Virus record (IMG/VR): IMGVR_UViG_3300042894_007411
Direction: 5' to 3' (one strand)
From: a virus
Lineage: Duplodnaviria > Heunggongvirae > Uroviricota > Caudoviricetes
DNA: 64,000 nucleotides
The notes under the pieces are model-generated. The model did not search any database, was not told the DNA's origin, and was given only the letters and a program-made list of their open reading frames with translations. The stretch's first letter is position 1. The number at the start of each line of letters is the position of its first letter. Positions 48,982 to 64,000 of this stretch are shown here, in pieces. The position numbers and the translations under genes are program-made.

Positions 48982-50043
48982 TTATTTCGGGAGAATTGAA
49001 TTTATAACACCAGAAAGATAATTGGTGATTTTATAAGGATCTGCATTTGAACCTGGCCTCCTGTCTTCTAGATATCCTTTCCATGTTTGAGAGGTAGACA
49101 ATGGAATTCTAATAGAAGCACCTCTGTCGCTAACTCCCCAGCTGAATTTATCAATGCTTTGGGTCTCATGCTTGCCTGTCAATCTCATTCGATTGTCAGA
49201 GCCGTAAAGAGAAATGGCGGTTTCGTGAGTTTTACCCAATTCCTCACAAATTTGTTCGAAGTATTCTTTGCCTCCAGATTCTCTCATTTCGAAGGTTGAG
49301 AAATTGGTGTGCATGCCAGAGCCATTCCAGTCCTCATGCTCGCCCATGGGCTTTGGATGAAAATCAACTTTTATTTTATATGACTCTGCAATTCGAACCA
49401 GAAGAAATCTTGAAATCCATAGGTCGTCTGCCGCTGCCTTTTCTCCTTGACCAAAAATTTGGTATTCCCATTGGCCTAACATTACTTCTGCATTAGTTCC
49501 AGTGATGTTGATTCCACAAGACAAACAAGCTTCTAGATGTTGTTCCGAAATTTCTCTTCCTGCAGAATATGGGTGTCCAATTGAACAATAATATTTACCT
49601 TGTTCTTCCGGTACACGGAAATTTTCGAATCCTACAGGAAGAGTTTTGTCTTTATTAAACCATCGAAGAACATATTCTTGTTCGAAGCCGAACCAAGTGT
49701 TGAAATCCTCATCGTTTATTTTAGCTCTAAAATTCGAGGTGTGTGGGGAATAATCTGAATTTAAAACTTCACATAACACAATGAATGAAAATCCACCTTT
49801 GAGAGGGTCCGCATACATTTTCACGGGTTTTAAAATACAATCTGAAAGTTTTCCATCCGCTTGTCTAGTAGAACTACCGTCAAAATTCCATTCTGGTATT
49901 TTCGAAAAGTGATTTCTTGCCCAGTGCATCGGAGAAAATGAACTTTCCCCTTCAAAGGGAACATCCAACACTTTAATTTTCGATCTTAGATTCGGCTCTG
50001 GTTCATATCCATCCAACCAGACATATTCCAATTTTATTTTCAT
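48982..50043 (-). CDS. glutamine synthetase, type II (eukaryote-like GSII)
   Basis: 'EYVWLDG...NLRSK' N-terminus and ~350-aa length match GSII. Confidence 0.7.
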   Translation of the reverse strand: MKIKLEYVWLDGYEPEPNLRSKIKVLDVPFEGESSFSPMHWARNHFSKIPEWNFDGSSTRQADGKLSDCILKPVKMYADPLKGGFSFIVLCEVLNSDYSPHTSNFRAKINDEDFNTWFGFEQEYVLRWFNKDKTLPVGFENFRVPEEQGKYYCSIGHPYSAGREISEQHLEACLSCGINITGTNAEVMLGQWEYQIFGQGEKAAADDLWISRFLLVRIAESYKIKVDFHPKPMGEHEDWNGSGMHTNFSTFEMRESGGKEYFEQICEELGKTHETAISLYGSDNRMRLTGKHETQSIDKFSWGVSDRGASIRIPLSTSQTWKGYLEDRRPGSNADPYKITNYLSGVINSILPK

Positions 50044-50111
50044 ATGGGAATTTTAATTTTGATGTTGTTTATACATCAAATTTTAAAAAAATTTCCAATA
50101 CAGAAATGAAA

Positions 50112-50288
50112 TTATTTAGATTGAAATCCAGTAAATGTTTTCTTGAAATCTTCGAATCCCATCAACTTTCCTACAGTTGAATGTTTCAAACCTAAGGAAC
50201 CTTGCTTTGTTCCAAAAATCTTTTGGTCGTACCACTTAATGAAATTATCTGGCGTGGTGTATTTTGCTTGTGGGGTAACTGTTTTCAT
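50112..50288 (-). CDS. small hypothetical protein (58 aa), not in ORF track
   Basis: Translation 'MKTVTPQAKYTTPDNFIKWYDQKIFGTKQGSLGLKHSTVGKLMGFEDFKKTFTGFQSK'. Confidence 0.25.
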   Translation of the reverse strand: MKTVTPQAKYTTPDNFIKWYDQKIFGTKQGSLGLKHSTVGKLMGFEDFKKTFTGFQSK

Positions 50289-50291: not shown

Positions 50292-50687
50292 TTAGGGGGT
50301 TTCCGATAGGAAAAATATTTTTGCCAGAATTCCAACCAGGGATGTAAAGAAAATCCAAAGAGCCTTGTTGACTCCAGATTTCCACTTTACTAAATCAGAG
50401 TGTTCTAAAACCATCTTTTGGTAGGCAGCATCCTCTCTTTCTTGCTTTCTTTCGAATTCTGCACGAAATCTGGTATTTTCGTTTACTTTTACGATAACAC
50501 CATCGTCTGGATCTAACAATTTGCGTTTAATGTCTGATAACTCTCTTTTCATTTCGGCTTGAGAGTTTTTAAGATCCTCCATAGCCATCTGAATAATTCT
50601 AAGATCGCTAGAAGGAATTCCTCTCATGTTAGAAAGTTCTTCGTGAAGAATTGCACGGATAGTTTCGGCGAGTGGGGTAGGTTCCAT
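50292..50687 (-). CDS. coiled-coil protein with C-terminal TM
   Basis: 'ALWIFFTSLVGILAKIFFL' C-terminal. Confidence 0.4.
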   Translation of the reverse strand: MEPTPLAETIRAILHEELSNMRGIPSSDLRIIQMAMEDLKNSQAEMKRELSDIKRKLLDPDDGVIVKVNENTRFRAEFERKQEREDAAYQKMVLEHSDLVKWKSGVNKALWIFFTSLVGILAKIFFLSETP

Positions 50688-50722: not shown

Positions 50723-50926
50723 TTAGGAATTAGATTCCCAGCATACACTTGTTTCGGAGGCAATAATGAAAGAATCCACAGTTTCTGGATCGGTATCTAT
50801 CACGAACATCCCATAATATTCACCGTTTAAAATTTTCGATTCAATTATAAGAGATTCGTGCATATTAATTAGGGTGCAAACTTCCAAATGTGATTTTGCA
50901 CTTTTTGTTTTAATTGTTGTTATCAT
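50723..50926 (-). CDS. hypothetical protein
   Basis: 67-aa ORF. Confidence 0.3.
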   Translation of the reverse strand: MITTIKTKSAKSHLEVCTLINMHESLIIESKILNGEYYGMFVIDTDPETVDSFIIASETSVCWESNS

Positions 50927-51393
50927 GATTCATCAATCTTTAAAATTATATTGTTGACTCTTGGAGAATCTACTATGAAAAATTTGCTTTTATCAACTTC
51001 TTCAATTATAAATTCTGTGGGATTTATACTTCCTCTCAACCAATATTTGGTTTTTCCAATTTTGAATTCGGTATCCAAATGATCTGGGGTTAACTTTGAA
51101 AGTCTTATCCATTTGCTTTGATTTCTGATAAACTGGGTTCGATAGTATTCCAACAAAGAATCCGTTGGTTTTTTTATTTCTCTAAAAATTTGGGCCATTA
51201 ATTTGTTTTTTCCTTGAGTTATACAACCAATTGGAAAAATAATTTCCCCGGTTGAATTTGAATTTTTACTTACGATTGTTGTGGTGTTTGCATTTGTAAT
51301 CTCAAACTTGTTAGATCGTCCATAATAGGACCAAGAATGAAAAATTCCTTTGACTCTTTTCCCATCTCGCAAACTCCAGGTTGGCAGTACCAA
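50923..51393 (-). CDS. hypothetical protein (overlaps upstream ORF by 124 nt; possible frameshifted single gene)
   Basis: Both frames open 51270-51393. Confidence 0.35.
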   Translation of the reverse strand: MVLPTWSLRDGKRVKGIFHSWSYYGRSNKFEITNANTTTIVSKNSNSTGEIIFPIGCITQGKNKLMAQIFREIKKPTDSLLEYYRTQFIRNQSKWIRLSKLTPDHLDTEFKIGKTKYWLRGSINPTEFIIEEVDKSKFFIVDSPRVNNIILKIDES

Positions 51394-52013
51394 TAAATGT
51401 TATAGTGAAAATGATTGTGATCCCCCGAAGACATTCTCTTCGATCCATTGACCTCGTTGGTCCAAGGATCCTCTCCATCGACCAGATGTTTTAAAAGATA
51501 ATTTCTATCCCAAATGGTGGCATTGTGGGAGTGTAAATAATTTTCTCCATCCGAGTACTTTAGAATTTGTTTTTTGTTTATTTCAAATGGGGTTGGCTCC
51601 AATTTATAGGATTCATAGTAGTGCAATTTGGTGTGGATTTTGATTGAGTTTGCATTGTGTAACTCAACAAAAGAAACCAATTCTTCTAAAACTTCATCCC
51701 CGGGATATGAAAAAGGCCACATATCTTCTTGGATGTAAATTACCCACTTAGAAGGAATACGTTCTAATGCCAATCTCATCCTGGTAGAAAAACCATTTTT
51801 GTCTGTCAACCCTGTTAAAATTGGTGTAATACCGGGATTCACGGTATATGGAAGATTACGACAAGACAAATTGATGTCATGTACATTTTTTTCCTCTGAA
51901 GCCCAATAGACCGGTACCTTTTCAAAATTCCAATTGAAGTCAAGACCATAAAGCATACCAAACCAATATTGTTGGTATGAATCACAGGTGTGAACGAGCA
52001 AAGAAAGATCCAT
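51270..52013 (-). CDS. hypothetical protein, cluster member
   Basis: 247-aa ORF. Confidence 0.4.
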   Translation of the reverse strand: MDLSLLVHTCDSYQQYWFGMLYGLDFNWNFEKVPVYWASEEKNVHDINLSCRNLPYTVNPGITPILTGLTDKNGFSTRMRLALERIPSKWVIYIQEDMWPFSYPGDEVLEELVSFVELHNANSIKIHTKLHYYESYKLEPTPFEINKKQILKYSDGENYLHSHNATIWDRNYLLKHLVDGEDPWTNEVNGSKRMSSGDHNHFHYNIYWYCQPGVCEMGKESKEFFILGPIMDDLTSLRLQMQTPQQS

Positions 52014-52014
52014 T

Positions 52015-53010
52015 TTAAAAATTTTGGAAATAATTCGATTTTTGAAGCTTTTCTAGATAATCTGTAATTTTAGAACACTCTGATTCTCTCTTTTCCCCGT
52101 GTAAAACTTTGATCGATCTTTTTTCTTCCGGAATTTTATAAAAGCATAAAGAAGGATCTGGATTTTCCTCGGTCATCCACGATGAAAATCCAGGTTGACC
52201 CTGTTCATAAAAATGTACGGTTGTCTCTAAACCATCTCTTAAATTAATGTAACACAAAGGCAAACCCTCGTTCGTTTTTTTCCAGGACAAAACATTGTAA
52301 ATGGTTTCCTCGTGATAGGCAGCATAATAATTCAAATCTAAATTGAGTTTTGGTAACATAAAACAAAGCTCACGCCACATTTTCACAAAAGATAAACAAT
52401 CTGGTGTGGCTAATATCACGTTAGTTGTTCTGTAGGTACCCCTCGAATCTGGAAACATCTGTAGAAATTGCATTAAAGGCCATTCTAAAGTTTTTGTGTG
52501 ATCTGCCATGGGCCAACATCCTTCAAATGGATTACCTCTTTCTTTTCCAGATTCAATCATAATCATGTACTGATGTATGCCTTCTGAACAGAGAGGATAG
52601 TTCTTAACAAGCGGAATCCAATCGAACAACTCGTCAACAATAGGAGTTCCTAAACAATCTGAATCTAGATAGCAAACCTCTTCGACACCAGACTCCAAAG
52701 CTTTTTCGATGGCAACAGTTTTGGCACAAAGGATTTGATAAATTCTTGGGCTTTTTCTTTCGATATAAAAATTTCCATCTGATTGTGTTCCAAAATCTTC
52801 AGGTCTCAAAGAATCGATAGGTAAATCAATATGAATTAGATGAACTTCCGTAATATCTTCGAAAGGATTGACGTTTTCCCGACAATTTATTCCATAAATT
52901 AGAATAGGAATGTCGGAAAATTTACGAATAGATAAAGCCAGATTTCTAGCGACCTGAAAATAATTTTCAGTCACATGGGTAATGTATGCTCTTTTCATAA
53001 GAACTCCCAT
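52015..53010 (-). CDS. nucleotide-diphospho-sugar (GT-A-like) transferase
   Basis: 'CYLDSDC' DxD-like motif in GT-A-like context. Confidence 0.4.
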   Translation of the reverse strand: MGVLMKRAYITHVTENYFQVARNLALSIRKFSDIPILIYGINCRENVNPFEDITEVHLIHIDLPIDSLRPEDFGTQSDGNFYIERKSPRIYQILCAKTVAIEKALESGVEEVCYLDSDCLGTPIVDELFDWIPLVKNYPLCSEGIHQYMIMIESGKERGNPFEGCWPMADHTKTLEWPLMQFLQMFPDSRGTYRTTNVILATPDCLSFVKMWRELCFMLPKLNLDLNYYAAYHEETIYNVLSWKKTNEGLPLCYINLRDGLETTVHFYEQGQPGFSSWMTEENPDPSLCFYKIPEEKRSIKVLHGEKRESECSKITDYLEKLQKSNYFQNF

Positions 53011-53117
53011 CCTCCACCTGGAAATTTTTCTTCTTGGACTAAAACATTAAAATTTTTTAGTTGTTCATTAAAATAACAAATGTAATTAATGTACAGGTCT
53101 TGTAGTTTCATGGGTTA

Positions 53118-53945
53118 TTAATTAATTGATTTTATTTGATCAATGTTTCTTTTAGTATATCCTTCTTCTGGGACATTTACCAAAATCTTATTGATAAAAA
53201 CCGACCTAAGGCTATTGCTTACCATATACTCACGAACACGCTCCCATAAATCACAATCACTTGGTGATACATTTCCAGTTTCCTCGTAAACATCCCGAAA
53301 TAAAAGGGGTATTTTCACAAAATTCATGCAAACTGTTTGTGTTAATAAACGTGTGCAATGAGGGTAAATTTCGTGATAATCCTTGTCGCTCGGCAAACTA
53401 TATAAAGGAAATTCCTGTCCATTTGTGAAATATCCTTTGGCAAAAACAAAGTCAGCCCCCGTTATCTTGATGCACCGATTAACTTCCTCTAAATAAGTTG
53501 GATAGTAAAAATCATCATGGTTCTGCAAACATATAAAACTATGACCATCTCTCTTTGCCAACTCAATACCAGTATTTATTGCATTTGCTCCGCCCGAACT
53601 CCAAAGCTTATCTCCATCTTCATATTTATCCCTCTCCTTGGCGTGAGGTAAATTTACAGCTTTGATTCTATGGTCGTAACTCTTGGCGATCTGGCCGAAT
53701 TGTTCTTGGTCTGAGTATTTGTCACCAATCATGTAAACTTCAAAATCTTGGTGAGATTGAGCATAAATACTATCCAAAAGCCTGCGAATGTAAAATTCGC
53801 TTAGGCCATCGGGGCGTTGGTAAGTCGGAAATACTATTGGGAATGTCATATCTTTATTTTTTAATAATCCGGAATCTAATGTTTGTTTCACATTAATCTT
53901 GATTTTTTTTATAAAAACGTTTATTTTCTGGTTGATACCATTCAT
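53118..53945 (-). CDS. GT2 glycosyltransferase (likely true start at 'MTFPIVFPTYQRP', ~53849)
   Basis: 'FPTYQRPDGL...SIYAQSHQDFEVYMIGD', 'DDFY'. Confidence 0.6.
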   Translation of the reverse strand: MNGINQKINVFIKKIKINVKQTLDSGLLKNKDMTFPIVFPTYQRPDGLSEFYIRRLLDSIYAQSHQDFEVYMIGDKYSDQEQFGQIAKSYDHRIKAVNLPHAKERDKYEDGDKLWSSGGANAINTGIELAKRDGHSFICLQNHDDFYYPTYLEEVNRCIKITGADFVFAKGYFTNGQEFPLYSLPSDKDYHEIYPHCTRLLTQTVCMNFVKIPLLFRDVYEETGNVSPSDCDLWERVREYMVSNSLRSVFINKILVNVPEEGYTKRNIDQIKSIN

Positions 53946-54678
53946 CTAATGAAGCTGGGACTCTTGAATGGTAACCTAAAAATTGTTGCATTTCATAAGT
54001 AAACGAATTCATTCTTTCATATCCTAAAGCTCTAGGATAATCTAATAATTGTTTCATAAATGATTTACTTATAGTAAAAGGAATAGCTCTTCTATTATTC
54101 TGGGTTTTATTAGGAGCTGAAGAATGCCACACATTAGAATTGAATATTAATATATCTCCTCTTTTTCCTGTTGCTTGGTGGGCATTGTTAAAAAACTCTT
54201 CATCGGTTGGTTTTCTTTCTTCTAAATGGGAACCGGTAAGAAGATAAGTCCCGCCATTCTCAATAGTAAAATCATCTATCATAATTAAACAATTAAGCAT
54301 TATAGGAAATTCTCCAGAATAAAATCTTAGATCACGATGTACTATGGATGAAAAATTAGGTTGGTTAGGTAAATTATTTAAAGCACTAAATGAATTTAAA
54401 ATACATTTACTATGGAAAAAATTATCTTGTAATGATTGAATAAACCCATTTTTAAGTAAAGTTTGTAAAAATTCTATAAATACCGGACTACTTAATAAAA
54501 CATGAAGGGCAACCCCCATTGAATTAATATCATTATTATTATATAATTGAATATTTCTATGTTCTAAAAATGCTTTATCTATTTCACTAGATAGTATATC
54601 TAACCATTTTTTAGTTATTTGATTACGAACAATTACATAACCTTTTTCTTTTAATTCTTGGGATTGCTGTATTATCAT
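53893..54678 (-). CDS. PhyH-like Fe(II)/2-oxoglutarate dioxygenase
   Basis: 'VHRDLRF' (HxD), 'NVWHSS' distal His, 'NNRRAIP'. Confidence 0.5.
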   Translation of the reverse strand: MIIQQSQELKEKGYVIVRNQITKKWLDILSSEIDKAFLEHRNIQLYNNNDINSMGVALHVLLSSPVFIEFLQTLLKNGFIQSLQDNFFHSKCILNSFSALNNLPNQPNFSSIVHRDLRFYSGEFPIMLNCLIMIDDFTIENGGTYLLTGSHLEERKPTDEEFFNNAHQATGKRGDILIFNSNVWHSSAPNKTQNNRRAIPFTISKSFMKQLLDYPRALGYERMNSFTYEMQQFLGYHSRVPASLDEWYQPENKRFYKKNQD

Positions 54679-55340
54679 TTTAAAAATTTTTCTCCTTCAA
54701 CTCTATTTTTAATTATTTTAGCAGGGTTGCCGTATGCTAGTACATTTGATGGGATAGATTTAGTAACTAAACTACCTGAGCCTATTACTGTGTTTTCTCC
54801 TATTTCTAATCTATCCATTATAGTTACCCCTAATGTAATAGCCGAAAATTTTCCAATTTTAACATATCCCCCTGTTAAGGATCCCGCAGATATACTAGCA
54901 AAATCTTCTATTTCATTATCATGTTCTACTTGTGCCCCTGTAGCAAAAAAAGTAAAATTACCTATTTTAGCTTTAGGATTAAAAATACATCCAGCCATTG
55001 CTACAATCCCTATTCCTAATTCAGTAGTATTTCCTATAATAACTGAGGGGTGAATAGCATTCACAAATTTAAAATTAGGTATTAATTCATGTATTTGATT
55101 ATAAACATAATACCTACTCCAATTATCTCCTATAGAAATTACTCCCCCATATATGTCATTTTGATTAATAATTTCTTTCAAATTTTCTTGACGACCTAAA
55201 ATAGAATAACCAAATCTTTTACTTCCTATCTCATGGATTGAGTCAACAATACCAATAATATTATATTTTTTTTCTTTTTCAATAATATCTATAGTATAAT
55301 GAGCTTGGTTACCTCCTCCTATTAAAATTATATTTTTCAC
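54675..55340 (-). CDS. NeuD/PglD-family sugar N-acyltransferase (hexapeptide)
   Basis: 'NIILIGGGNQAHYTIDII' N-domain + left-handed beta-helix repeats. Confidence 0.7.
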   Translation of the reverse strand: MKNIILIGGGNQAHYTIDIIEKEKKYNIIGIVDSIHEIGSKRFGYSILGRQENLKEIINQNDIYGGVISIGDNWSRYYVYNQIHELIPNFKFVNAIHPSVIIGNTTELGIGIVAMAGCIFNPKAKIGNFTFFATGAQVEHDNEIEDFASISAGSLTGGYVKIGKFSAITLGVTIMDRLEIGENTVIGSGSLVTKSIPSNVLAYGNPAKIIKNRVEGEKFLK

Positions 55341-55963
55341 TTTGTATAAATTTTAAATTTAGATAAGTTGGGGTATGGAAGCTCCAAATCAGCGTTATGC
55401 TTTTTGCTACCATCGGTGTTGTAAAATTGATTCATTAACAACAAGCCCCTCGTTGCAAGTTCGGGCATCATATAGAAATTCCATCCGAGCATATCAAAAT
55501 GATCATCGTGATAACTGCACTCTCTCCTACCGCTATACCTTGCTCTTTTAAACCACAAATAAGCCTGATGATCATCGGTAAGTATTGCTCCTCCCTTGGA
55601 TAACTTAAAATGCTTGTACGGACCTGTAAACGATATGCACATATGGGTATTGGGAAGATACATATCAGCCGTAAACCTTAAAGCACTATCCCAAACCCGG
55701 CTCGGTTTGAGTTGGTATGCGCCCTTCAATGTCGTTCCTTCAACTTCTTCAAAATCCACCCTTGCCCCTGCGTGGATGATTTCGCAAGGCACGGATGGGT
55801 ATGTTCGTTCCGGGATAGTAATTGTTGTGCCTCCAACTTTCTCGTACATCAATGCTAAAAACAGTCCATTGGATTGGTTGTCTAAGCACACTGCATAAGG
55901 AGCGCCGGTGTAGTCCGCAAGGCGTTTTTCAAATTCGTTGGTAATGTCATAAACAGTTTTCAT
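55337..55963 (-). CDS. short DegT-like PLP-fold protein (truncated paralogue)
   Basis: 'CISFTGPYKHFKLSKGGAILTDD' aligns to DegT 'SFHxTKNxxxGEGGxVVTND' PLP-Lys block; only 208 aa. Confidence 0.45.
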   Translation of the reverse strand: MKTVYDITNEFEKRLADYTGAPYAVCLDNQSNGLFLALMYEKVGGTTITIPERTYPSVPCEIIHAGARVDFEEVEGTTLKGAYQLKPSRVWDSALRFTADMYLPNTHMCISFTGPYKHFKLSKGGAILTDDHQAYLWFKRARYSGRRECSYHDDHFDMLGWNFYMMPELATRGLLLMNQFYNTDGSKKHNADLELPYPNLSKFKIYTK

Positions 55964-55998
55964 CCAGATAATTTTTTTTCTTCTTGGTGAATAAAATT

Positions 55999-56640
55999 TT
56001 AAATTTTGATTTTTTTTAAATAACCATTAGGGTTGAAAGTAACATTGTAACCATAAAAATCACACCATTTTCTATCTATTTCGAATTGTGGATTTTGGGG
56101 CAAAAATTCTCCTATTGCTCTAAGAGGACCTCCGTCATAGTTTTTTTCGATGCCCATCCAATTCACAGTTCCATCTTCAACGATCATATAGGAATCTTCG
56201 CTGATTAAATCTTTGAATTTATTCATCACAGACAAAACATCGTTATATTTGTGTGACCCGTCTTCAATCAACATAATTTTTTCAAATGAGGATGCATAAT
56301 CCAAGTTGTATTCTTGATAACCTCCCAAGAATCTCTGAATTCTTGGATGTCGATTAATCAAACCCCTCTTTTCTTCGGAATTTGATAAAAAAGTTTCATC
56401 CTGAATATCCACAGTATGAACCATACCTTTACCTATATTATTTAAAATATCACCCAAATACAGGCAGGATCCTCCATAATTAGTCCCTATCTCTATTATC
56501 AAATCGGGTTTTATTTCATTAATTATCATTTGATACATTACGTAATCAAATGGGGATTTTTCAGTTATGATTCCTCTATATAAAGTTTTTAGATGTCCAT
56601 CCATGATACCATCTAAATTTAAGTTGTATGAATTGTTCAT
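55999..56640 (-). CDS. CmcI-family (cephalosporin hydroxylase-like) O-methyltransferase
   Basis: 'PDLIIEIGTNYGGSCLYLGD', 'MLIEDGSH', 'MIVEDG'. Confidence 0.65.
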   Translation of the reverse strand: MNNSYNLNLDGIMDGHLKTLYRGIITEKSPFDYVMYQMIINEIKPDLIIEIGTNYGGSCLYLGDILNNIGKGMVHTVDIQDETFLSNSEEKRGLINRHPRIQRFLGGYQEYNLDYASSFEKIMLIEDGSHKYNDVLSVMNKFKDLISEDSYMIVEDGTVNWMGIEKNYDGGPLRAIGEFLPQNPQFEIDRKWCDFYGYNVTFNPNGYLKKIKI

Positions 56641-56649
56641 TTTTTTATT

Positions 56650-57054
56650 TTAAAGATCCACTCTCATAGTATTGCACTCCCTGAAAAATCCACATCTTTC
56701 ATAGAAATTTATTCTCTCATCAAAACAGGATAGAATAACCTTATAACATCCAAGATATCTTGCTTTTTCCAATGCTTTTTGAACTAATAAATAACCAATT
56801 TTATTACCTCTAAATTTTTCTTTTACTGCTACATCCTCAATATACCCAGCTATTCCCCCGTTCCTTATTAATTTTTTTTGAATATGAAGGGTAATTGTTC
56901 CTATAATTTCTTCCCCTTCAACCGCTACAAAGTTATGATTGTTAAGCATCCACTGGTCTAAATTGTGAATTTCAATTTCTGTAATCCACCATGTTTCACT
57001 AAGGACTTTCAATAAACCTAGTTCATCTCCTTTTTGAAATTCTCGAATAATCAT
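56650..57054 (-). CDS. GNAT N-acetyltransferase
   Basis: 'IEDVAVKEKFRGNKIGYLLV' CoA-binding block. Confidence 0.65.
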   Translation of the reverse strand: MIIREFQKGDELGLLKVLSETWWITEIEIHNLDQWMLNNHNFVAVEGEEIIGTITLHIQKKLIRNGGIAGYIEDVAVKEKFRGNKIGYLLVQKALEKARYLGCYKVILSCFDERINFYERCGFFRECNTMRVDL

Positions 57055-57059
57055 GATAT

Positions 57060-58220
57060 TTATTTTTGAGATTCTAAAACTCGATCAATTACAAATTCAA
57101 TTTCTTCGTCTCTTAAATAAAGATGCAAAGGAAGACTGATGATTTTTTCGCTTGAAATTAAAGAATTGGGGTTTAGCCCAAATTGAGATTTATACATCTC
57201 ATAATTAGTATTGTCTCTATAATGAACCCCGGGATAGATTCCGTTCATATTCAAGTATTCCATAGTTTTATTTCTTTCCTCTACAATTATTTGGTACAAA
57301 TGTCTGGAAGAGATTTCCGTATAAGGAGAAACTTTAACTGATTTAATGCCAGATGATTCAAAAGCAGTTTCATAAATTTTGCAGATCTCCCTCCTTCTTT
57401 CATTATCTTCTTCCAAATATTTGAGACCTACCAAAGCCATAGAAGCCATCATAGAATTTCCATGGTATTTAAATCCGACATCTACCAGATCATATTCCCA
57501 TTTATAACTCCCTTTATCATGGGATCTCTGGTAAGTGTCTTTTGAAATTCCAAGCCAAGATAATTTTCTAGCTAAAGCGTCGTAATCCTCGTTTTTAAAA
57601 CAGATCATTCCTGAATCAGCGGTAGGGAGGTTTTTAACAGCCTGAAAACTAAAAATGGAAACATCAGCATCTAAACCAACATGGTCTTTCGAGTATCCAA
57701 CCCCAATCTCTGTTTTGTTTTTGACCCAGGTTCCGGCCATATGTGCGGCGTCTAAAATAATTTTTAGGCCTTTTTTTTTGCAAAGTTTTACTATTTCATC
57801 AAACCTACCGGCATTACCACCAATACCAACAAATAAAACAGCTTTGGTTTTTTTAGTAATTTTTGATTCAACTGACTTAGGATCTAAGCAAAGAAATTCA
57901 TCCACGTCCGCAAAAATTGGTTTCAACCTTTCGTACAAAATCGCATGATTCGAAGAAACGAAAGTTAGAGGAGACGTGATAACCTCATCTCCATCTTTCC
58001 ATTTATTTGCATCTTTCAAAATTTTCAAGGCAAGATGTAAACCTGATGTGTTAGAATTTATAAAATGCGAATGGTTGAATCCAGTGTACTTTTTCCATTC
58101 TTCTTCAATCTGCTGAGTTTTAAAACCTAAACCAGTCCAGCCCATTTCCATACATTCCTCCATTATTTCGAAAATTTCGGAAGTTCTAAATTTAGGTTTA
58201 AATAATTGAATATTTTTCAC
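57060..58220 (-). CDS. DegT/DnrJ/EryC1/StrS sugar aminotransferase
   Basis: 'FKPKF...EEEWKKYTGFNHSHFINSNTSGLHLAL', 'SFQAVKNL' PLP lysine. Confidence 0.8.
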   Translation of the reverse strand: MKNIQLFKPKFRTSEIFEIMEECMEMGWTGLGFKTQQIEEEWKKYTGFNHSHFINSNTSGLHLALKILKDANKWKDGDEVITSPLTFVSSNHAILYERLKPIFADVDEFLCLDPKSVESKITKKTKAVLFVGIGGNAGRFDEIVKLCKKKGLKIILDAAHMAGTWVKNKTEIGVGYSKDHVGLDADVSIFSFQAVKNLPTADSGMICFKNEDYDALARKLSWLGISKDTYQRSHDKGSYKWEYDLVDVGFKYHGNSMMASMALVGLKYLEEDNERRREICKIYETAFESSGIKSVKVSPYTEISSRHLYQIIVEERNKTMEYLNMNGIYPGVHYRDNTNYEMYKSQFGLNPNSLISSEKIISLPLHLYLRDEEIEFVIDRVLESQK

Positions 58221-59323
58221 AACAAATAATAATTTTTTACTAGAGCATACTTAGACAAGTTTTCTCTTTTAATTTTTATAGAATCTGTGAATTGACATGT
58301 TTCATCTCCTATATTCTGTAATTTTTTTGTAAAAACTACAGAATCCCCATCTACAAACAAATCATTCAATTTTTCTTTGTACCAAGTTCCTTTTCTCAAA
58401 ATAATTTCTCGTTTATAAAATAATTCGCCATTTTCATTTTCAATCTGAATTTCGAATTTTATTTCTTCCCCGAAAAAACCGTAGTCTACTTCCAAAAGCA
58501 ATGAACATTCACTAAGATCTTCTTTCCAAAATATCGAAGAAGTTGTTTGGGAATGTAAAGAACTAGGTCCTGGTTGTATAACTGAACTTTTTAAGTTCCA
58601 ATTCCCAATTCCAAAAAAATTATCTAATTCTTCATAATTGCAAATTAAATTGTCGTCTTGAACAAAAAGTTGTAAAATTACATCTTCACCAGAGCAATTA
58701 GGAAAATGTTTTTGATAAACTGAATTATCAGAAAAATCTATATTTGGAATTCTGTTTATTAAAATTTCATCAACGCTGAATCCGAAAAAGAATCCAGAAA
58801 ACCAACTGCTAAAATTTGGGCTATTTCTAATAAAGAAATTCCTTTTTTTTCCTAGGTCATTAAAAACCTGATTAAATTTTTCTAGGATATTATCTGGGCA
58901 TTTAAAATCACCTACAAAATAAAAAGAAAAATCATAACCTTTAGAATGAACAAATTTTATAGAGTTAAAAAATTGGGACATAATAGCAACAGACCAACCA
59001 GTGATTACTACATAATCTCTAAACATCTCGTTTCCAATAGTCATAAATTTCATATAAATTGGATTCGATATACCTTGTAAATTGTAATTTAAAATGTCGG
59101 AATCAAGGAAATGGTAATTGTTTTTCTTTTCAAAAATAAAATAAGTCGAGTTTTCAATTATTTCTGGAGTACACGGGTGATGGCTGGTAAGTAAAACATC
59201 TATGTTATTTAATTTGAATTTTTTTAAGTTCTCTAATAGAATTTTCTGTTCATCTTCTGTTTGAGGATAAGCATCAATAATAACACAAAATTTTTTTTCT
59301 GTGTAATTTTTTTTGGAGTCCAT
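58217..59323 (-). CDS. hypothetical protein, cluster member (possible glycosyltransferase)
   Basis: 368-aa ORF, ATGA overlap. Confidence 0.4.
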   Translation of the reverse strand: MDSKKNYTEKKFCVIIDAYPQTEDEQKILLENLKKFKLNNIDVLLTSHHPCTPEIIENSTYFIFEKKNNYHFLDSDILNYNLQGISNPIYMKFMTIGNEMFRDYVVITGWSVAIMSQFFNSIKFVHSKGYDFSFYFVGDFKCPDNILEKFNQVFNDLGKKRNFFIRNSPNFSSWFSGFFFGFSVDEILINRIPNIDFSDNSVYQKHFPNCSGEDVILQLFVQDDNLICNYEELDNFFGIGNWNLKSSVIQPGPSSLHSQTTSSIFWKEDLSECSLLLEVDYGFFGEEIKFEIQIENENGELFYKREIILRKGTWYKEKLNDLFVDGDSVVFTKKLQNIGDETCQFTDSIKIKRENLSKYALVKNYYLL

Positions 59324-59357
59324 TCTTTAAAAAATATTTAATTTTTCTTCCAAATTA

Positions 59358-60272
59358 TCAATTTTTCCAAGCCCATATCATGTTTCCAGTGTGGTGTGTT
59401 TGGAATCCATTTTCTGAAAAGATAAGCAACAATTGATCCGGAGGATGAATATGATATTCTAAAACTATCTTTGGTATAGACTTTAAAAATTCAGAGCTTA
59501 AGTAAGGCAAAATTTCCCATTCACATCCTTCACAGTCGATTTTCAAAAAATCTATTTTTACTCCAGATTCTCTAGCCCATTCTTCCAGAACAACTCCTTG
59601 GCAAGAAACACTTTCATCAGTATGATCAAACGAAAAAGAAACTGAATTCAAAACACTAAAGTCATGTATGTTTAATCTTAAATCTTTTTTTTCAGACCAC
59701 ACGGCTGAATTGTTAACATGAATTGGTAAATCCCCAAAATTTGTTTGTATAAAGTTTGATAATTTGGGATCTGGTTCAAAAGAGTGAACTTTAGAAGCAC
59801 CTTGTGTAATTGAAAAATAAGTGAATAAACCAATATTAGCCCCAATATCAACAACAACATCTCCAGGTTCTACTTTACAACGATCGTGGTTATATTCACC
59901 GTTAAGAAAAATCTCCCAAAGTACCAATCCGGTTGATAAGTCTTTTTTTGAAAGATTACTCCCTATATTTTTCAACTTGTTTTTTTGGTCTAAATTTCTT
60001 ACATCATGTTGAAAAACATCCGAGTAATCACAAACTTGAAGTAGGATTTCTTCAGTTTTAGAATCTTCCACTACAAAAGTCATTAATTTTGTAATTCTAC
60101 CGTCATAAGATGCCCAGTAGGAACATTTTGGAAGGACTTTCATTGTTTCCCCCCTGAAAATTAAACTAGTATATGAATCAATGAACTTAATTACAATTTC
60201 TTTTTCTTCATCAAAATGACTTGTAAAATCTATTCCGTTTCTATCTGGTAAAATGTGATTCAATGAGATCAT
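59358..60272 (-). CDS. FkbM-family methyltransferase
   Basis: 'VVDIGANIGLFT', 'FLKIDCEGCEWEIL'. Confidence 0.65.
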   Translation of the reverse strand: MISLNHILPDRNGIDFTSHFDEEKEIVIKFIDSYTSLIFRGETMKVLPKCSYWASYDGRITKLMTFVVEDSKTEEILLQVCDYSDVFQHDVRNLDQKNKLKNIGSNLSKKDLSTGLVLWEIFLNGEYNHDRCKVEPGDVVVDIGANIGLFTYFSITQGASKVHSFEPDPKLSNFIQTNFGDLPIHVNNSAVWSEKKDLRLNIHDFSVLNSVSFSFDHTDESVSCQGVVLEEWARESGVKIDFLKIDCEGCEWEILPYLSSEFLKSIPKIVLEYHIHPPDQLLLIFSENGFQTHHTGNMIWAWKN

Positions 60273-60278
60273 AATTTA

Positions 60279-61055
60279 TTATTTGTTGTTTTGTTTAAGA
60301 ACTTCTTTTTCTTTATTGAAGCAATGTAAAGAAGTGATGTGCATGGTAAAAAGTCCAGGTTTTACATTTTCCCAAGATTCGGGACTTCTCTCTTTCAATT
60401 TTTCTAGAACCCAAAAAACTTTGCGGCAAGCCATGTAAATATCGTCCCTGAAATGGCGGAGGTAGTCGCAAGACCTTATGTAATACACGATGTGTAAATA
60501 ATCTGCTCTTCTCATAAAATGATAACCGATTGTACAAGGAACTCGTTCACCGTGAACAGAACCAGTGTCTTCAGGGAACCACAAAGGAAGAAATGCCTGC
60601 CTTGTAAAAGGTTCTCTTTGTAGCAAATCGATCACATCCCCAAAGTCACCATAATGGTACCTGATACCAAACATGGTAGATTTGGGTTCTTCCGATGCAA
60701 ATTTAGGCCAGAGCCTTTCGGGATAAGTGTGAGAAAATTTCTCCTCGATTTTAAACTGGGCGTTCTTCTTTTGGTTGAAAGGCCACCATTCGTTCGAAGG
60801 TGGTGGATTTAAAGGTTGGCCCCCTATTCTTTCTTCAAAATGATCGTCCGCCCAGGGAAGATTAGGTCTGACCTCCTCGCGTAGCTCCTGAAGTGTACCT
60901 GGCACAAACATAGAGAAAGATGTATTTAAAGTTTCCCACATGTCGTCGGGAGAAGTTATACCCTGCCATCTCTCGGTCTGTACAACATATCCATAGTCGA
61001 TCAATTTTTCCTTAGCCCACTTGATGGCTTGTGAGGGCTTTTGAAATGTTTTCAA
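60279..61055 (-). CDS. divergent thymidylate-synthase-fold enzyme (pyrimidine-nucleotide C5 hydroxymethylase/methylase-like)
   Basis: 'VPCTIGYHFM' (catalytic Cys), 'YYIRSCDYLRHFRDDIY' aligns to TS 'LYQRSCDVFLGLPFNIASY'. Confidence 0.55.
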   Translation of the reverse strand: MKTFQKPSQAIKWAKEKLIDYGYVVQTERWQGITSPDDMWETLNTSFSMFVPGTLQELREEVRPNLPWADDHFEERIGGQPLNPPPSNEWWPFNQKKNAQFKIEEKFSHTYPERLWPKFASEEPKSTMFGIRYHYGDFGDVIDLLQREPFTRQAFLPLWFPEDTGSVHGERVPCTIGYHFMRRADYLHIVYYIRSCDYLRHFRDDIYMACRKVFWVLEKLKERSPESWENVKPGLFTMHITSLHCFNKEKEVLKQNNK

Positions 61056-61129
61056 TTGAAATAAATTTTGAAAATTATACAGATCAGAAACTATAAGTTT
61101 CTGTTTGATTTTATTTTATCTCAAAAATT

Positions 61130-61783
61130 TTATTGGTTCAACCAAAAAAATAATTCTTCATTACCAATCAAATTTAAATCCCTAACTCTATTTTTTTGAA
61201 AAACTTTATATTCGAAATATGGGTTGTCAAAGGGAACGAGCTCTTGTCTTCCTCTTTTAATAAGACCAACTCCCTCATCGATATTAAGAGTACAAATATT
61301 TAAGTCAGATCTAGTTGCCTTTAATTTATAAATCGTTTTCCAAACCGTTCCGTTCCATGGCTGTCCCCAATTATCCTCAACTAATCTGGTATAATTTTCT
61401 TCATACATAAATGGGTCACAATCATGCAAAACAATAACACCATTTTCTGATAAGTGATTCAAAGAATTCAATATGTCTTTTTCCACCTGATAAGAAAGAT
61501 GTAATCCATCAATAAAAATTAGGTCCCACTTATAATCAGGAGGTAAATCCAACAAATTATTTTCTAGCCTAATAAAGAATTCATCCGATGTGTATTGGTA
61601 TTTAACTGGATTTTCCTGGTACTCTAAACCTGGATCTACCCCGGATTTTTCTGGACATTGAATTAAATCGAAACAATCCCACGGGAATCTAACTCCTATT
61701 TCTAAATAGGTATTAAAATTTTTTGTTTGAATGATTTGGTTGATTACTTCAGATCTGTGCATGAATATAAACTTGTTTACCAA
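61130..61783 (-). CDS. class I SAM-dependent methyltransferase (Methyltransf_24-like)
   Basis: 'YLEIGVR', 'DLIFIDGLHLSYQVEKDI', 'GVIVLHDC'. Confidence 0.5.
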   Translation of the reverse strand: MVNKFIFMHRSEVINQIIQTKNFNTYLEIGVRFPWDCFDLIQCPEKSGVDPGLEYQENPVKYQYTSDEFFIRLENNLLDLPPDYKWDLIFIDGLHLSYQVEKDILNSLNHLSENGVIVLHDCDPFMYEENYTRLVEDNWGQPWNGTVWKTIYKLKATRSDLNICTLNIDEGVGLIKRGRQELVPFDNPYFEYKVFQKNRVRDLNLIGNEELFFWLNQ

Positions 61784-61846
61784 TTGTACTGAATTGATAA
61801 TTAAAGTTTCTTGGATACAAAAAATAGCAGGATTTAATCCTATAAA

Positions 61847-62257
61847 TTATCTATTCTTACTGCTCATTTTCCGGTACAACTTGTATTCTGGTGTTTCCTC
61901 AATGGAATCTAATTCGAATCTCTGGAAATTTCCGAACCTCATAGGTCCATTTAAATTAAACCTTTTGTGTGGTTCGACTGAATCCTCGTAAAATTGACAA
62001 ATTTGCTCGTGATATTCGGAATCTTTTTCAATAAAATATTCTTCTGGGTTGTGATAGTAGTCAAAAAGATACTCTGCCCATTCGGAGGGATTCTTTCCTC
62101 CTCCAAATTGTTCGACAAATTTTTCCATTTGGATTTCTTCATCCGTCATGCTTATACCCAAATTTTGGAAACCTGAAATCAAATCATCTAGATCTGACCC
62201 AATATCATTATTTTCATTCAAAATTGAGAACACCCAAAAGGATTTTAAATTATTCAT
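61847..62257 (-). CDS. hypothetical acidic protein
   Basis: 136-aa ORF. Confidence 0.4.
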   Translation of the reverse strand: MNNLKSFWVFSILNENNDIGSDLDDLISGFQNLGISMTDEEIQMEKFVEQFGGGKNPSEWAEYLFDYYHNPEEYFIEKDSEYHEQICQFYEDSVEPHKRFNLNGPMRFGNFQRFELDSIEETPEYKLYRKMSSKNR

Positions 62258-62282
62258 GATAAATTATATATCCATTTTTTTG

Positions 62283-62317
62283 CCCACAAAAAACCCGACC
62301 TGAATTGGGTCGGGTTT
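62283..62317 (-). terminator. rho-independent terminator (minus strand)
   Basis: Stem 'aaacccgacc/ggtcgggttt', 7-nt loop, T-run on minus strand. Confidence 0.6.
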
Positions 62318-62332
62318 TAAGCTTGTCCGGAA

Positions 62333-62491
62333 TTACTGAACTGCCGTGGTTGAATCTACAGAGGTAGTGTCCGCAGATTCAACTACTGTAGAATCCACTG
62401 TTGTCTCCTCGGAAGGAGCAGTTTCTTCTGTTGGTGTAGCACATGAGCTCAGAATCAAAGCTGAGACAAGCAAGAAAAACAAATTTTTCAT
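62333..62491 (-). CDS. small lipoprotein (52 aa) with Ser/Thr/Glu-rich tail; not in ORF track
   Basis: Translation 'MKNLFFLLVSALILSSCATPTEETAPSEETTVDSTVVESADTTSVDSTTAVQ'; lipobox 'LSSC'; terminator follows. Confidence 0.5.
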   Translation of the reverse strand: MKNLFFLLVSALILSSCATPTEETAPSEETTVDSTVVESADTTSVDSTTAVQ

Positions 62492-62561
62492 TTTTTTGGT
62501 TTTGAATTTTAAATTATATATTCATTTCGAAGAATGTTTCAATGAATTCAATATTTTTTAT

Positions 62562-62807
62562 TCAAATAGAAGAAGATCCATATTCCATTTCGAGGTAAGA
62601 CATCTCTATTTCTGCTTTTTTCTGGTCATATCCAAATTCATTCTGAATTAAATTTACACCATATTGTCTCCATTCCAAAAGCGTTTCCCCCTTCAAAGGA
62701 AAATTCAAATTCCAATAGGGATCTTTATTTAAAACTTCTTGTTTCAGATCAAGATAAATTCTGTGTCTCTCTTTTAGAGCGGCAAAAATTTTGTTTTTGT
62801 TTTTCAT
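62562..62807 (-). CDS. hypothetical protein
   Basis: 81-aa ORF. Confidence 0.35.
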   Translation of the reverse strand: MKNKNKIFAALKERHRIYLDLKQEVLNKDPYWNLNFPLKGETLLEWRQYGVNLIQNEFGYDQKKAEIEMSYLEMEYGSSSI

Positions 62808-62823
62808 TTAATTTTTGATTTTA

Positions 62824-63612
62824 TTAAAATTTTGAGGATTCGAGATATTGTCTTTTTCTTTCATTCAGTGTTTTTCTTCCTTCCGATAACCAATTTTCCT
62901 GTGCGTTTGAATTTTCATCTTTAGTTTCTGATGGATAAGTTAATGAATTAGGATGAACACGATAAACATAACTGGGATATTGAAGATATTCAATTTTTCC
63001 TCTTAGAGAAAGCTCAAAGTTCATCGGCCAGTCGGAATAAGGAAATTCTTCCATATATTTTTGAAATAAATCAGGATAATTCACAAAAAATCTAGAAGAT
63101 GAAGTAACACAGTTGTGTTGATTAGCAATAAAATCCGAAGAAGTATATTCCTCTTTTTGTAAGTGTTCAGGAGGCCCAAAAAAATAATTTCCTGTTCTTA
63201 GAGGTTCGAATTTTTTTTCATTCTCGTTGTATATTATGTAAGCCGTGAAACACATTGATAAATCTTTATTATTTTCCATAATTTCATACTGATTTTGGAG
63301 TTTGTTCGGATCTATCCAATAGTCATCAGCATCTAAATAAGCTATGTAATCACCGGTTGCCTGTTCAAGTAAAAATTTTGTATTTTGTATTTCTCCGGAA
63401 TTAGATCTAGAAAAATAGCGAAACGAAAATTTATGTCCTGGAAGTATATTTTTAAAGTACTCTAAAACTTCTAAACTTTGATCCGTAGATCCATCATCCG
63501 AAACCAGAATTTCTACGGGGAAAGAAGTTTGTTGACATAAAACGGAAAATAAACAGGTGTCCAAAAATCTACCATAATTATAATTAGGTATAATGACCGT
63601 TACTTTTTTCAT
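62824..63612 (-). CDS. GT2 glycosyltransferase
   Basis: 'VTVIIPNYNYGRFL...ILVSDDGSTDQS', 'YLDADDYW'. Confidence 0.7.
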   Translation of the reverse strand: MKKVTVIIPNYNYGRFLDTCLFSVLCQQTSFPVEILVSDDGSTDQSLEVLEYFKNILPGHKFSFRYFSRSNSGEIQNTKFLLEQATGDYIAYLDADDYWIDPNKLQNQYEIMENNKDLSMCFTAYIIYNENEKKFEPLRTGNYFFGPPEHLQKEEYTSSDFIANQHNCVTSSSRFFVNYPDLFQKYMEEFPYSDWPMNFELSLRGKIEYLQYPSYVYRVHPNSLTYPSETKDENSNAQENWLSEGRKTLNERKRQYLESSKF

Positions 63613-63622
63613 TTTTAAAAAA

Positions 63623-64000
63623 TTATTGATTTACAAAATAAAACATTGTTTGATGTTCCCCGTTATTATTTACATCCCAATAAAAAGAATGTCTAACTTT
63701 TCCTGGAATAAAAAAAGTTTCATTAAGAATAGGATCGTGTGTTTCTACTGCTATTTTATTTATTTTATTTAAAATTGATTCATCCAAGTTTTGGAATAAA
63801 TCATATTCTCCACCTTCAATGTCACACTTCAAAAAGTCAATTTTTTCCAAATTGAAAATTTTGAAAACATCCTCCATTTGCAAATAAAGGGGGTTGTGTT
63901 TTGGTGACCATAAGTGTGTTGGATGTAGGGATTTTCCCAAAACAGAAGCATTCAAATATTTTACATTGTTGTGTTCTTTTGTATTTTCTATAAGACAAGA
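63623..64000 (-). CDS. FkbM-family methyltransferase, 5'-partial (continues beyond window end)
   Basis: 'IDFLKCDIEGGEYDLF'; track start codon is TTG and frame stays open to nt 64000. Confidence 0.55.
   Translation of the reverse strand, partial: SCLIENTKEHNNVKYLNASVLGKSLHPTHLWSPKHNPLYLQMEDVFKIFNLEKIDFLKCDIEGGEYDLFQNLDESILNKINKIAVETHDPILNETFFIPGKVRHSFYWDVNNNGEHQTMFYFVNQ

Follow-up and report, generated by a model that had tools for sequence, protein, structure and literature searches.

A predicted deoxycytidylate C5-transferase gene between variable glycan islands of a Caudoviricetes contig

The viral contig IMGVR_UViG_3300042894_007411 of IMG/VR (Duplodnaviria; Caudoviricetes), of which a stretch of 64,000 nucleotides was analysed (hereafter the window), encodes a protein related to thymidylate synthase (TS) amid genes of sugar-tailoring enzymes. 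We put the odds at about one in two that this TS-like gene specifies, as predicted, a conserved C5-transferase acting on deoxycytidine monophosphate (dCMP), and that the variable glycan islands on both sides of it serve a target other than DNA. Judged from gene content and order, the segment is best read as a mosaic and not as a single pathway. Its most interesting element is the clade of TS-like genes itself, rather than the 13-kb 'module' of base hypermodification plus glycosylation that an earlier sequence-only reading had proposed.

The TS-like gene and its clade

The TS-like protein scores 20.6 bits against the Pfam TS family, below the gathering threshold of 24.3, and 28 bits against the NCBIfam model thy_syn_methano, for which the cut-off is 174.6; it matches PHROG 160 (5e-25). 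Its family comprises 4873 homologous proteins at E <= 0.001, of which the best 120 are 66-98% identical to the window protein, and approximately 145 clusters (50% identity) score E < 1e-30. A family profile of 44 diverse members has MilA CMP hydroxymethylase as its best match (6e-10), followed by HY126 dCMP hydroxylase, the N229D mutants of L. casei TS and T4 dCMP hydroxymethylase (T4 dCH). The AlphaFold2 model (pLDDT 91.7, pTM 0.91) recovers MilA in Foldseek (E 5e-14, TM 0.70) besides hundreds of TS chains, and superposes on MilA, HY126 dCMP hydroxylase, TS and T4 dCH with TM values of ~0.7 at 12-16% identity. The earlier call of a TS fold is right in spite of the low Pfam score, being supported by profile, AlphaFold model and Foldseek search; judged by its modelled structure, the protein is a deeply diverged member of the TS/dCMP hydroxymethylase superfamily.

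Aligned with E. coli ThyA by hhalign, C174 corresponds to the catalytic Cys C146, T175 to H147, R171 to L143, D197 to D169 and D205 to N177 (ThyA numbering is used for positions 143 to 177 below). The phosphate-binding residues R194/S195 (R166/S167 in ThyA) and R152 (R126) are invariant or nearly so, and R127 of ThyA is replaced by Gln153. The signature residues are invariant across the 44-member alignment, and 68-70 of 70 related loci keep them, Gordonia phage GTE2 and Streptomyces phage Zuko among them; Arg171 is present in 68/70 and Asp197 in 70/70, and the position of H147 is occupied by Thr or Ser throughout the family. The window possesses a further TS gene, a canonical ThyA, with the active site motifs LPPCH and RSQD...PFN (L143, H147, D169, N177). 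Asn177, His147 and Leu143, by which a canonical ThyA is recognised, are all found in this second gene, and all three are replaced in the TS-like protein. The Asp at 177 expected of a dCMP hydroxymethylase is present as the invariant Asp205, the acidic residue expected of such an enzyme at 143 is an Arg instead (Arg171), and the Asn at 169 of 5-hydroxy-dCMP synthases (RB69 gp48 type) is an Asp (Asp197).

Asp at ThyA position 177 marks dCMP as substrate (PMC13326640, PMC8670742), and N177D mutagenesis is cited in both sources as shifting TS from dUMP to dCMP. Asn at 169 marks 5-hydroxy-dCMP synthases, and at position 143 Leu correlates with a methyl product and Asp/Glu with a hydroxymethyl product (PMC13326640). 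Given Asp177 and D169, these rules make the TS-like enzyme cytosine-type and not a hydroxylase, and it is predicted to be a cytosine-nucleotide (dCMP) C5 methyl- or hydroxymethyltransferase. The Arg at the product-determining position 143 is without precedent, and being invariant, it provides a test case for the methyl/hydroxymethyl rule. Together with the canonical ThyA, the TS-like gene forms a T4-like pair of a cytosine-type and a uracil-type TS in one genome. The hydroxymethyl-pyrimidine envisaged in the sequence-only reading therefore stands in part: a TS-fold enzyme with the Asp-for-Asn177 signature, besides a ThyA paralogue, makes a modified cytosine in DNA a reasonable prediction.

Among 150 neighbouring ORFs (open reading frames) from 42 distant loci of the clade, the commonest families are dCMP deaminase (19 ORFs), MafB19-type deaminase (19) and PRA-PH (15), followed by cytosine-C5 DNA methylase (4), Asn synthase, UDG and PolA (3 each) and dUTPase (2); no glycosyltransferase occurs in the top 25 neighbour families of these loci. 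In GTE2 and Zuko the TS-like homolog is grouped with dCTP pyrophosphatase/MazG, a nucleoside monophosphate kinase, a deaminase and PolA, and the same kind of neighbourhood has been reported for modified-cytosine contigs (bioRxiv 2024.12.05.627091). The usual partners of the TS-like clade are thus nucleotide-pool enzymes. The neighbourhood of its small-phage members, TS(Asp177), dCMP deaminase, PRA-PH and PolA, resembles that of the dCMP methyltransferase and 5-methylcytosine (5mC)-selective deaminase of XP12/PaMx74 described in the same preprint. However, enzymes of the XP12 type were not recovered by tblastn with the TS-like protein of the window, so that the clade appears separate. The window differs from XP12 also in its separate ThyA and in lacking a nearby deaminase or PRA-PH; the latter two adjoin the gene in distant clade members, not in the window or its jumbo-phage relatives.

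The literature searched contains no characterised member of the clade. The TS-like protein has tblastn homologs of 38-47% identity in Mycobacterium phage Muddy/FF47, Gordonia GTE2-like phages, Streptomyces phage Zuko, Serratia phage Serbin and Pseudomonas phage PMBT14, where the genes bear the annotation 'thymidylate synthase'. The Arg143/Asp169/Asp177 signature was read in two of these isolates, in the translated genes of GTE2 (L004 5974-6840) and Zuko (L005 5944-6825), which are, by these residues, probably cytosine-nucleotide modifiers with a mis-annotated substrate. Pfam-based screens for cytosine-modifying TS homologs can overlook the clade, which lies under the TS threshold, and isolates including the therapeutic phage Muddy carry it under the label of a plain thymidylate synthase. 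If the clade makes 5mC or 5-hydroxymethylcytosine (5hmC) nucleotides, many more phages have modified DNA than assumed, which would bear on sequencing, restriction, the targeting of defence systems and phage engineering.

Two further genes accompany the TS-like gene in parts of the clade. One sublineage (L027 7094-8953, L032 6034-7893 and similar loci) carries a ~620-aa asparagine-synthase/glutamine-amidotransferase protein just upstream, which could be another base-tailoring enzyme. In five related sublineages a Serratia-type non-specific DNA/RNA endonuclease, absent from the window, lies just upstream of the TS-like gene (Table 1); a possible logic is that it frees deoxynucleoside monophosphates (dNMPs) from unmodified host DNA, phage DNA being protected.

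The sugar-gene islands and their variation among relatives

The comparison comprised 77 viral loci with a TS-like gene (cited by L numbers). Sugar-tailoring genes accompany this gene only in the closest relatives, and with varying content. In seven relatives (L002, L010, L011, L015, L018, L021 and L022), with TS-like proteins 67-77% identical to that of the window, the backbone gene o156 lies within 200 bases downstream of the TS-like gene and leads on to o67 and u131, without sugar genes between the TS-like gene and o156. In the window, o156-o67-u131 lie on the far side of an 8.9-kb sugar block. The backbone order TS-like gene, o156, o67, u131, glutamine-synthetase-like gene, four small ORFs and SbcD is collinear in L012, L017 and L022, and the window follows it save for this block. 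Intermediate states possess a single OmpA-like gene (L012), an FkbM-GT34 fusion and the 331-aa gene (L017), or a 332-aa gene, a Methyltransf_24 gene and the 331-aa gene (L087).

In the close relatives L001, L006 and L008 the TS-like protein is a constant 90-94% identical to that of the window, while the cassettes differ and the identities of neighbouring genes form a mosaic from 41% to 98%. L006 has DegT and GNAT genes with a GT2 of another kind, L001 has additional methyltransferases besides a GT92 fusion, and the cassette of L008 includes a carbamoyltransferase, an ATP-grasp enzyme and a HAD-nucleotidyltransferase fusion; the content of the right island differs likewise in L001, L006, L008 and L002. 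The GC content of the TS-like gene is 41%, that of its flanks 31-33%. Co-inheritance of the TS homolog with glycosyltransferases is not observed, and the adjacency of TS-like gene and sugar genes is best read, on gene order and identity, as an insertion hot spot beside a conserved gene. Island-free relatives, differing cassettes and the nucleotide-metabolism partners of the clade contradict the view of the 13 kb as one co-inherited hypermodification-plus-glycosylation module. The alternative offered with it, a TS-fold gene as passenger inside a glycan cluster, comes close with the roles reversed: the TS-like gene belongs to the backbone and the sugar genes are the insertions. Such islands represent a clear case of cassette-like glycan diversification in a jumbo phage of a probable Bacteroidota host.

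The sugar-tailoring domains named in the sequence-only reading are correct, almost all being supported by Pfam and NCBIfam (Table 1). Scores and best matches identify a tailoring set for amino sugars linked to nucleoside diphosphate (NDP), consisting of DegT, NeuD/PglD and GNAT proteins. The NeuD-type protein passes NCBIfam TIGR03570 (166 bits, cut-off 160.8) and has perosamine N-acetyltransferase (PerB) as its best PDB match (4e-24), and the full DegT protein is closest to ArnB-type UDP-4-amino-sugar aminotransferases in the PDB (5e-42). The CmcI protein remains under the cut-off of NF045824 (90 bits); it is 84-98% identical in L001, L006 and L008. The short DegT-like protein shares 79% identity with its counterpart in L008, and its gene and the TS-like gene stand out by a GC content of 41-42% among neighbours of 27-35%. 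Among the compared relatives, the GNAT gene is found only in L006, and the GT2 gene at 53118-53945 and the PhyH gene are confined to the window.

Neither the 247-aa nor the 331-aa protein at the downstream end of the left island has a Pfam, PHROG or PDB match. The former is 64-68% identical in L001, L006 and L008, where its neighbour is kept too. The latter, called a GT-A-like transferase beforehand, belongs to a family of only 156 proteins, some of them fused to GT2 or Methyltransf_24, and these fusions point to a glycan role, so that a glycan-assembly enzyme is probable. Its gene adjoins o156 in L017 and L087, and in the 481-kb contig L086 the family is fused to GT2 without a nearby TS-like gene. 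The 368-aa protein, previously left as unknown, gave no useful match in sequence searches of PDB, Pfam and PHROGs either, but combines a GT-A-fold domain with a C-terminal beta-sandwich. Its AlphaFold2 model (pLDDT 90.8) matches xylosyltransferase 1, GfsA, glycogenin and GTA/GTB in Foldseek (E 1e-5 to 1e-4), and homologs are fused to GT92 or GT17 domains. Among the structure predictions recommended in the sequence-only reading for every ORF, those of the TS-like and the 368-aa protein were run, with the folds given above as outcome.

The right island ends with an FkbM gene, present as stated before, though truncated by the window end. The locus L083, identical to the window over 9959/9959 bases, provides its full length and the continuation: a cupin, then unrelated genes for an AAA_33 P-loop protein, ClpP, an ATP-grasp protein, thioredoxin and a PolB fragment. 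The cupin was considered as a sugar ketoisomerase of the FdtA/QdtA type and dropped, as PDB support is missing. The absence of an NDP-sugar nucleotidyltransferase and a 4,6-dehydratase holds for the window and equally for the 9.6 kb beyond it in L083. No island enzyme on either side possesses a membrane segment, and Pfam scans of both islands found no flippase, polymerase (Wzx/Wzy), lipid-carrier or initiating transferase genes.

Proposed mechanism and competing interpretations

In the proposed mechanism, Cys174 of the TS-like enzyme would attack C6 of dCMP, and a one-carbon unit from methylene-tetrahydrofolate would be moved to C5, giving 5-methyl-dCMP or 5-hydroxymethyl-dCMP, which kinases would pass on into phage DNA; dTMP would be supplied by the canonical ThyA. 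The islands, low in GC and recombining, would contribute soluble enzymes from both sides of the TS-like gene, namely an NDP-sugar 4-aminotransferase, N-acetyltransferases, a dioxygenase, 4-5 GT-A-type transferases and 4-5 O-methyltransferases. With these, an NDP-keto-deoxy-sugar of the host would be converted in the cytoplasm into N-acetylated amino-deoxy sugars, which the GT-A enzymes would assemble and the methyltransferases O-methylate to a methylated oligosaccharide. The acceptor would be a phage or host macromolecule, e.g. virion proteins as in chloroviruses, mimiviruses and mycobacteriophages (for the last, Freeman et al. 2023 as cited in PMC12619734). From our analysis an acceptor other than DNA is most likely; the identity of the acceptor, be it virion protein, host surface or DNA, would reveal the purpose of such clusters.

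The closest glycan machineries, besides the virion glycosylation of mycobacteriophages, are the chlorovirus GT-methyltransferase of the A064R type and the amino-sugar clusters of mimiviruses (PMC9614988, PMC10117803). They share with the islands soluble GT-A transferases and FkbM-type O-methyltransferases, which are fused in the relatives L017 and L002, and likewise belong to large viruses with a DegT aminotransferase, N-acetyltransferases and clade-specific variation of cassettes. They differ in that the window contains no capsid or tail gene adjacent to the islands and no sugar-activating enzyme.

Several observations weigh against this interpretation. The residue at position 143, Arg, agrees neither with the Leu that goes with a methyl product nor with the Asp/Glu that goes with a hydroxymethyl product, so that either product is conceivable. 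The partners that the sequence-only reading had advised to look for outside the window were not found within the 64 kb, where ORFs of at least 100 aa include no dCTPase, dNMP kinase or dCMP deaminase; beyond the window, L083 adds an AAA_33 P-loop protein. No structural (capsid or tail) gene adjoins the islands. In several sublineages, namely L017, L087 and the close relatives, genes for glycosyltransferases and methyltransferases are again found beside the TS-like gene, L008 and L017 have a carbamoyltransferase in its vicinity, and in T4 the beta-glucosyltransferase gene adjoins gene 42; together these may still reflect a functional link. Moreover, an arms race over DNA decoration would likewise yield variable sugar cassettes.

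The AAA_33 protein of L083 (6164-6556) has 130 aa, lies ~6.4 kb beyond the TS-like gene and bears a weak likeness to the P-loop region of adenylate kinase; it is a candidate small nucleotide kinase.

An alternative is an integrated DNA hypermodification module, which we rate as unlikely, though as more probable than the other alternatives. In it, the TS-like enzyme would supply 5-hydroxymethyl-dCMP, or 5-methyl-dCMP to be oxidised on DNA by the PhyH protein, and GT-A transferases would add an aminated, N-acetylated and O-methylated sugar or oligosaccharide to the cytosine hydroxyl after replication, host defences selecting new cassettes. The cytosine-type Asp177, transferases directly adjoining the TS-like gene in the window and in L001, L006, L008, L017 and L087, island enzymes that are all soluble, and the absence of lipid-carrier, flippase and polymerase genes are in accordance with it. 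Precedents are found in RB69, DLP3 and RL38JI, where in 5-hydroxycytosine glycosylation clusters a TS homolog with Asp177 lies amid sugar-nucleotide genes and DNA glycosyltransferases (PMC13326640), and transferases of the lipopolysaccharide (LPS) type have been recruited to DNA. The statement in the sequence-only reading that TS-fold enzymes are unknown from sugar pathways is outdated, since in RB69 and DLP3 a TS homolog is part of a cluster for NDP-arabinose and arabinosyltransferase (PMC13326640).

These precedents differ from the window in several respects. Their enzymes are D169N flavin-dependent hydroxylases (PMC13326640), whereas the window enzyme retains D169, and they possess an adjacent nucleotide kinase, whereas no adjacent nucleotide kinase or dCTPase is found here. 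Fold-search matches of their DNA glycosyltransferases are reported in the same paper (PMC13326640). The island transferases are of the GT-A type. Those of RB69, DLP3 and RL38JI, by contrast, presumably match GT-B-type enzymes. Sugar genes and the TS-like gene are not inherited together: the seven island-free relatives have none before o156, and small phages of the clade lack them nearby. Additional genes of glycan type are placed at a distance from the TS-like gene, and the PhyH gene is confined to the window. Finally, 4-5 transferases with 4-5 O-methyltransferases imply a methylated glycan that exceeds any known on DNA.

The comparison with T4 is similarly divided. The window resembles T4 (gp42/td) in combining a TS-fold enzyme with catalytic Cys and Asp177 with a canonical thymidylate synthase in one genome, and in the transferase genes beside the TS-like gene, a position held by beta-glucosyltransferase in T4. 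It differs by an identity of ~16% to gp42, with the TS-like gene under the Pfam threshold, by Arg in place of an acidic residue at 143, by the absence of a dCTPase/dNMP kinase from the ORFs of at least 100 aa in the 64 kb, and by many GT-A transferases and sugar-tailoring enzymes that are not co-inherited with the TS-like gene.

The carbamoyltransferases (Carbam_trans_N/C; L008 2171-3784, L017 7054-8727) are 1.3-6 kb away from the TS-like gene. Their family has a member that carbamoylates 5hmC and is linked to TS(Asp177) genes (PMC8670742), which would suit a DNA module. However, the nearest isolate homologs are Nol-like sugar carbamoyltransferases of cyanomyoviruses with ~30% identity, and as these are of the sugar type, the enzymes of the relatives may or may not carbamoylate 5hmC. 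LPS-like clusters of cyanomyoviruses and pelagiphage HTVC008M resemble the islands in their variable GT2, methyltransferase and Nol-like carbamoyltransferase content in large aquatic phages, and differ in phage lineage, the nearest isolate by the SbcD-like nuclease of the window being Tunturi_5 (40%). We know of no TS(Asp177) paralogue in those clusters.

That a C5-modified cytosine from the Arg143/Asp169/Asp177 clade replaces or supplements cytosine and is decorated on DNA with the tailored glycan by the GT-A island transferases, relatives swapping decorations, appears doubtful to us; carbamoyl groups and different sugars would then be candidate alternative decorations in the relatives. If true, DNA hypermodification would gain a new class, unusually elaborate and diversified in the manner of cassettes.

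It is improbable that the TS-like gene is simply a divergent additional copy of thymidylate synthase, converting dUMP to dTMP, or a paralogue in decay, and that the phage DNA is unmodified. The annotation of the homologs in isolated phages would agree with this, and the homolog of GTE2 is the only gene so annotated in the 12.8-kb stretch examined. Yet the family has an invariant Asp at N177, Thr/Ser at H147 and Arg at L143, the N177D exchange is known to shift TS from dUMP to dCMP, a canonical ThyA is already present in the window, and the identity of 66-98% across more than 120 proteins bespeaks strong purifying selection, at odds with decay.

Still less credible is a nucleoside natural-product pathway similar to that of mildiomycin, in which a MilA-like CMP hydroxymethylase and sugar tailoring would yield a small molecule. 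Among solved structures, profile and fold searches both place MilA, a CMP 5-hydroxymethylase with Asp at 177, first, and aminotransferase, acyltransferase and methyltransferase genes are alongside; the identity to MilA, though, amounts to ~12%, and MilA has Asp at 143. MilA belongs to a Streptomyces antibiotic pathway, whereas the TS-like gene has a phage genome setting of replication and nucleotide genes, with dCMP deaminase, PRA-PH and PolA in the replication modules of other clade members, and flanking genes that are not co-inherited with it. That the segment is a chromosomal O-antigen or capsule locus of a bacterial cell, named in the sequence-only reading as a contrary outcome and suggested by the enzyme families typical of such loci, is effectively refuted, as the window is phage-like throughout, its relatives are IMG/VR viral contigs, Pfam scans of the islands gave no match to Wzx, Wzy, an ABC exporter or an initiating transferase, and transmembrane proteins are absent among the enzymes.

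Gene layout, phage lineage and minor features

The minus-strand gene run described beforehand is reproduced by the ORF listing and the Pfam and NCBIfam scans. Its tight spacing is confirmed, with 4-base overlaps at four junctions and remaining gaps of 1-107 bases, and so is the lack of internal terminators: no convincing intergenic terminator was found on the minus strand, all minus-strand matches lying inside coding sequence. Co-direction, taken earlier as a mark of the cluster, says little, because essentially every ORF from ~10.8 kb to 64 kb, i.e. over more than 50 kb, is on the minus strand.

Table 1. Coordinates of the TS-like gene, the island genes, backbone genes and the related endonucleases (window positions unless a locus is given)
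Feature	Coordinates	Strand	Remarks
Canonical ThyA	14670-15800	minus	376 aa; PF00303, 1.8e-93
Glutamine-synthetase-like backbone gene	48982-50043	minus	Gln-synt_N/C; compact
Backbone gene u131	50292-50687	minus	coiled coil and C-terminal transmembrane helix
Backbone gene o67	50723-50926	minus	
Backbone gene o156	50923-51393	minus	homologs ~91-96 aa
Left (downstream) variable glycan island	51270-60272	minus	11 genes, TS-like gene to o156; GC 32.7%
247-aa island protein	51270-52013	minus	
331-aa protein	52015-53010	minus	DSD motif; most widely retained island gene
GT2 glycosyltransferase	53118-53945	minus	275 aa; PF00535, 1.6e-11; no transmembrane segment
PhyH-type 2-oxoglutarate/Fe(II) dioxygenase	53893-54678	minus	PF05721, 8.8e-21
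NeuD/PglB/VioB-family sugar N-acetyltransferase	54675-55340	minus	PglD_N and Hexapep
Short DegT-like protein	55337-55963	minus	208 aa; PF01041, N-terminal part only, 1.3e-13
CmcI/rhamnosyl O-methyltransferase family	55999-56640	minus	PF04989, 4.5e-32
GNAT acetyltransferase	56650-57054	minus	PF00583, 8e-19
Full DegT-family NDP-sugar aminotransferase	57060-58220	minus	PF01041, 1.1e-72, 245.6 bits
368-aa protein	58217-59323	minus	GT-A-fold domain and C-terminal beta-sandwich
FkbM-family methyltransferase	59358-60272	minus	PF05050; TIGR01444, 85.9 bits, above cut-off
TS-like enzyme	60279-61055	minus	258 aa; conserved backbone gene
Right (upstream) variable island	61130-64000	minus	Pfam; GC 31%
Methyltransf_24	61130-61783	minus	
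136-aa protein	61847-62257	minus	no assigned family
Lipoprotein	62333-62491	minus	52 aa; signal and lipobox MKNLFFLLVSALILSSC
81-aa protein	62562-62807	minus	no assigned family
GT2	62824-63612	minus	Pfam
FkbM, cut by window end	63623-64000	minus	full gene 221 aa (L083)
Serratia-type endonuclease	L001 6145-6732; L006 8430-9017; L012 9366-9956; L017 8762-9346; L087 6731-7318		

The window has a GC content of ~35% and phage character over its whole length, with many small co-directional ORFs, PHROG matches to a Y-family polymerase, an RNA ligase, an SbcD-like nuclease and LysM/endolysin-like proteins, and a match to the anti-defence protein Tad3. In a megablast search, 34 kb of the window gave no match among 50,697 phage records, i.e. 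no close isolate at the DNA level; the SbcD-like nuclease is closest to that of Tunturiibacter phage Tunturi_5 (309 kb; 40% identity) among isolates. The relatives are IMG/VR viral contigs of 100-320 kb, and domains of the type IX secretion system (T9SS) in related contigs indicate Bacteroidota hosts. The window probably belongs to an uncultured jumbo phage of a Bacteroidota host. The freshwater 'moraphage' lineage (PMC12619734), which infects Bacteroidota and possesses glutamine-synthetase genes as well as four core glycosyltransferase groups, is a plausible home of the window.

The glutamine-synthetase-like gene is collinear in L001, L006, L008, L012, L017 and L087; in L012, L017 and comparable relatives, ~2 kb separate it from the TS-like gene. 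For o156, the lengths of the homologs suggest that the true start is probably internal to the annotated ORF. The product of u131 was considered as a small MazG-like dCTPase and rejected in view of its coiled coil, its C-terminal transmembrane helix and the absence of a family match. The canonical ThyA carries an insertion of ~110 aa in comparison with typical ThyA.

Pooled Pfam scans were evaluated per range, individual ORFs not being resolved. The range 8209-31214 contains RpiB, the Tad3 anti-Thoeris homolog, Mtd_N, a DnaA C-terminal helix-turn-helix domain, NAGPA, a chitinase-like lysin and an FkbM methyltransferase; the range 32766-50288 contains YqeY, HAD_SAK_2 and cREC_REC (parts of an RNA-repair 'Swiss army knife'), Methyltransf_24, GT25 and HNH. 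Glycan genes (GT25, FkbM, Methyltransf_24) are therefore also scattered through the interior of the window. At its opposite end, a second small group of glycan type occupies 74-2857 on the plus strand, with an HtrL_YibB-like protein, a metallophosphatase and a GT2; in L002 the gene immediately before the TS-like gene, on its upstream side, encodes a metallophosphatase. Positions 6995-8523 on the minus strand encode a UmuC-like Y-family polymerase (IMS, IMS_C, DUF4113), and a 104-aa ORF that overlaps the start of its gene may represent a UmuD-like partner.

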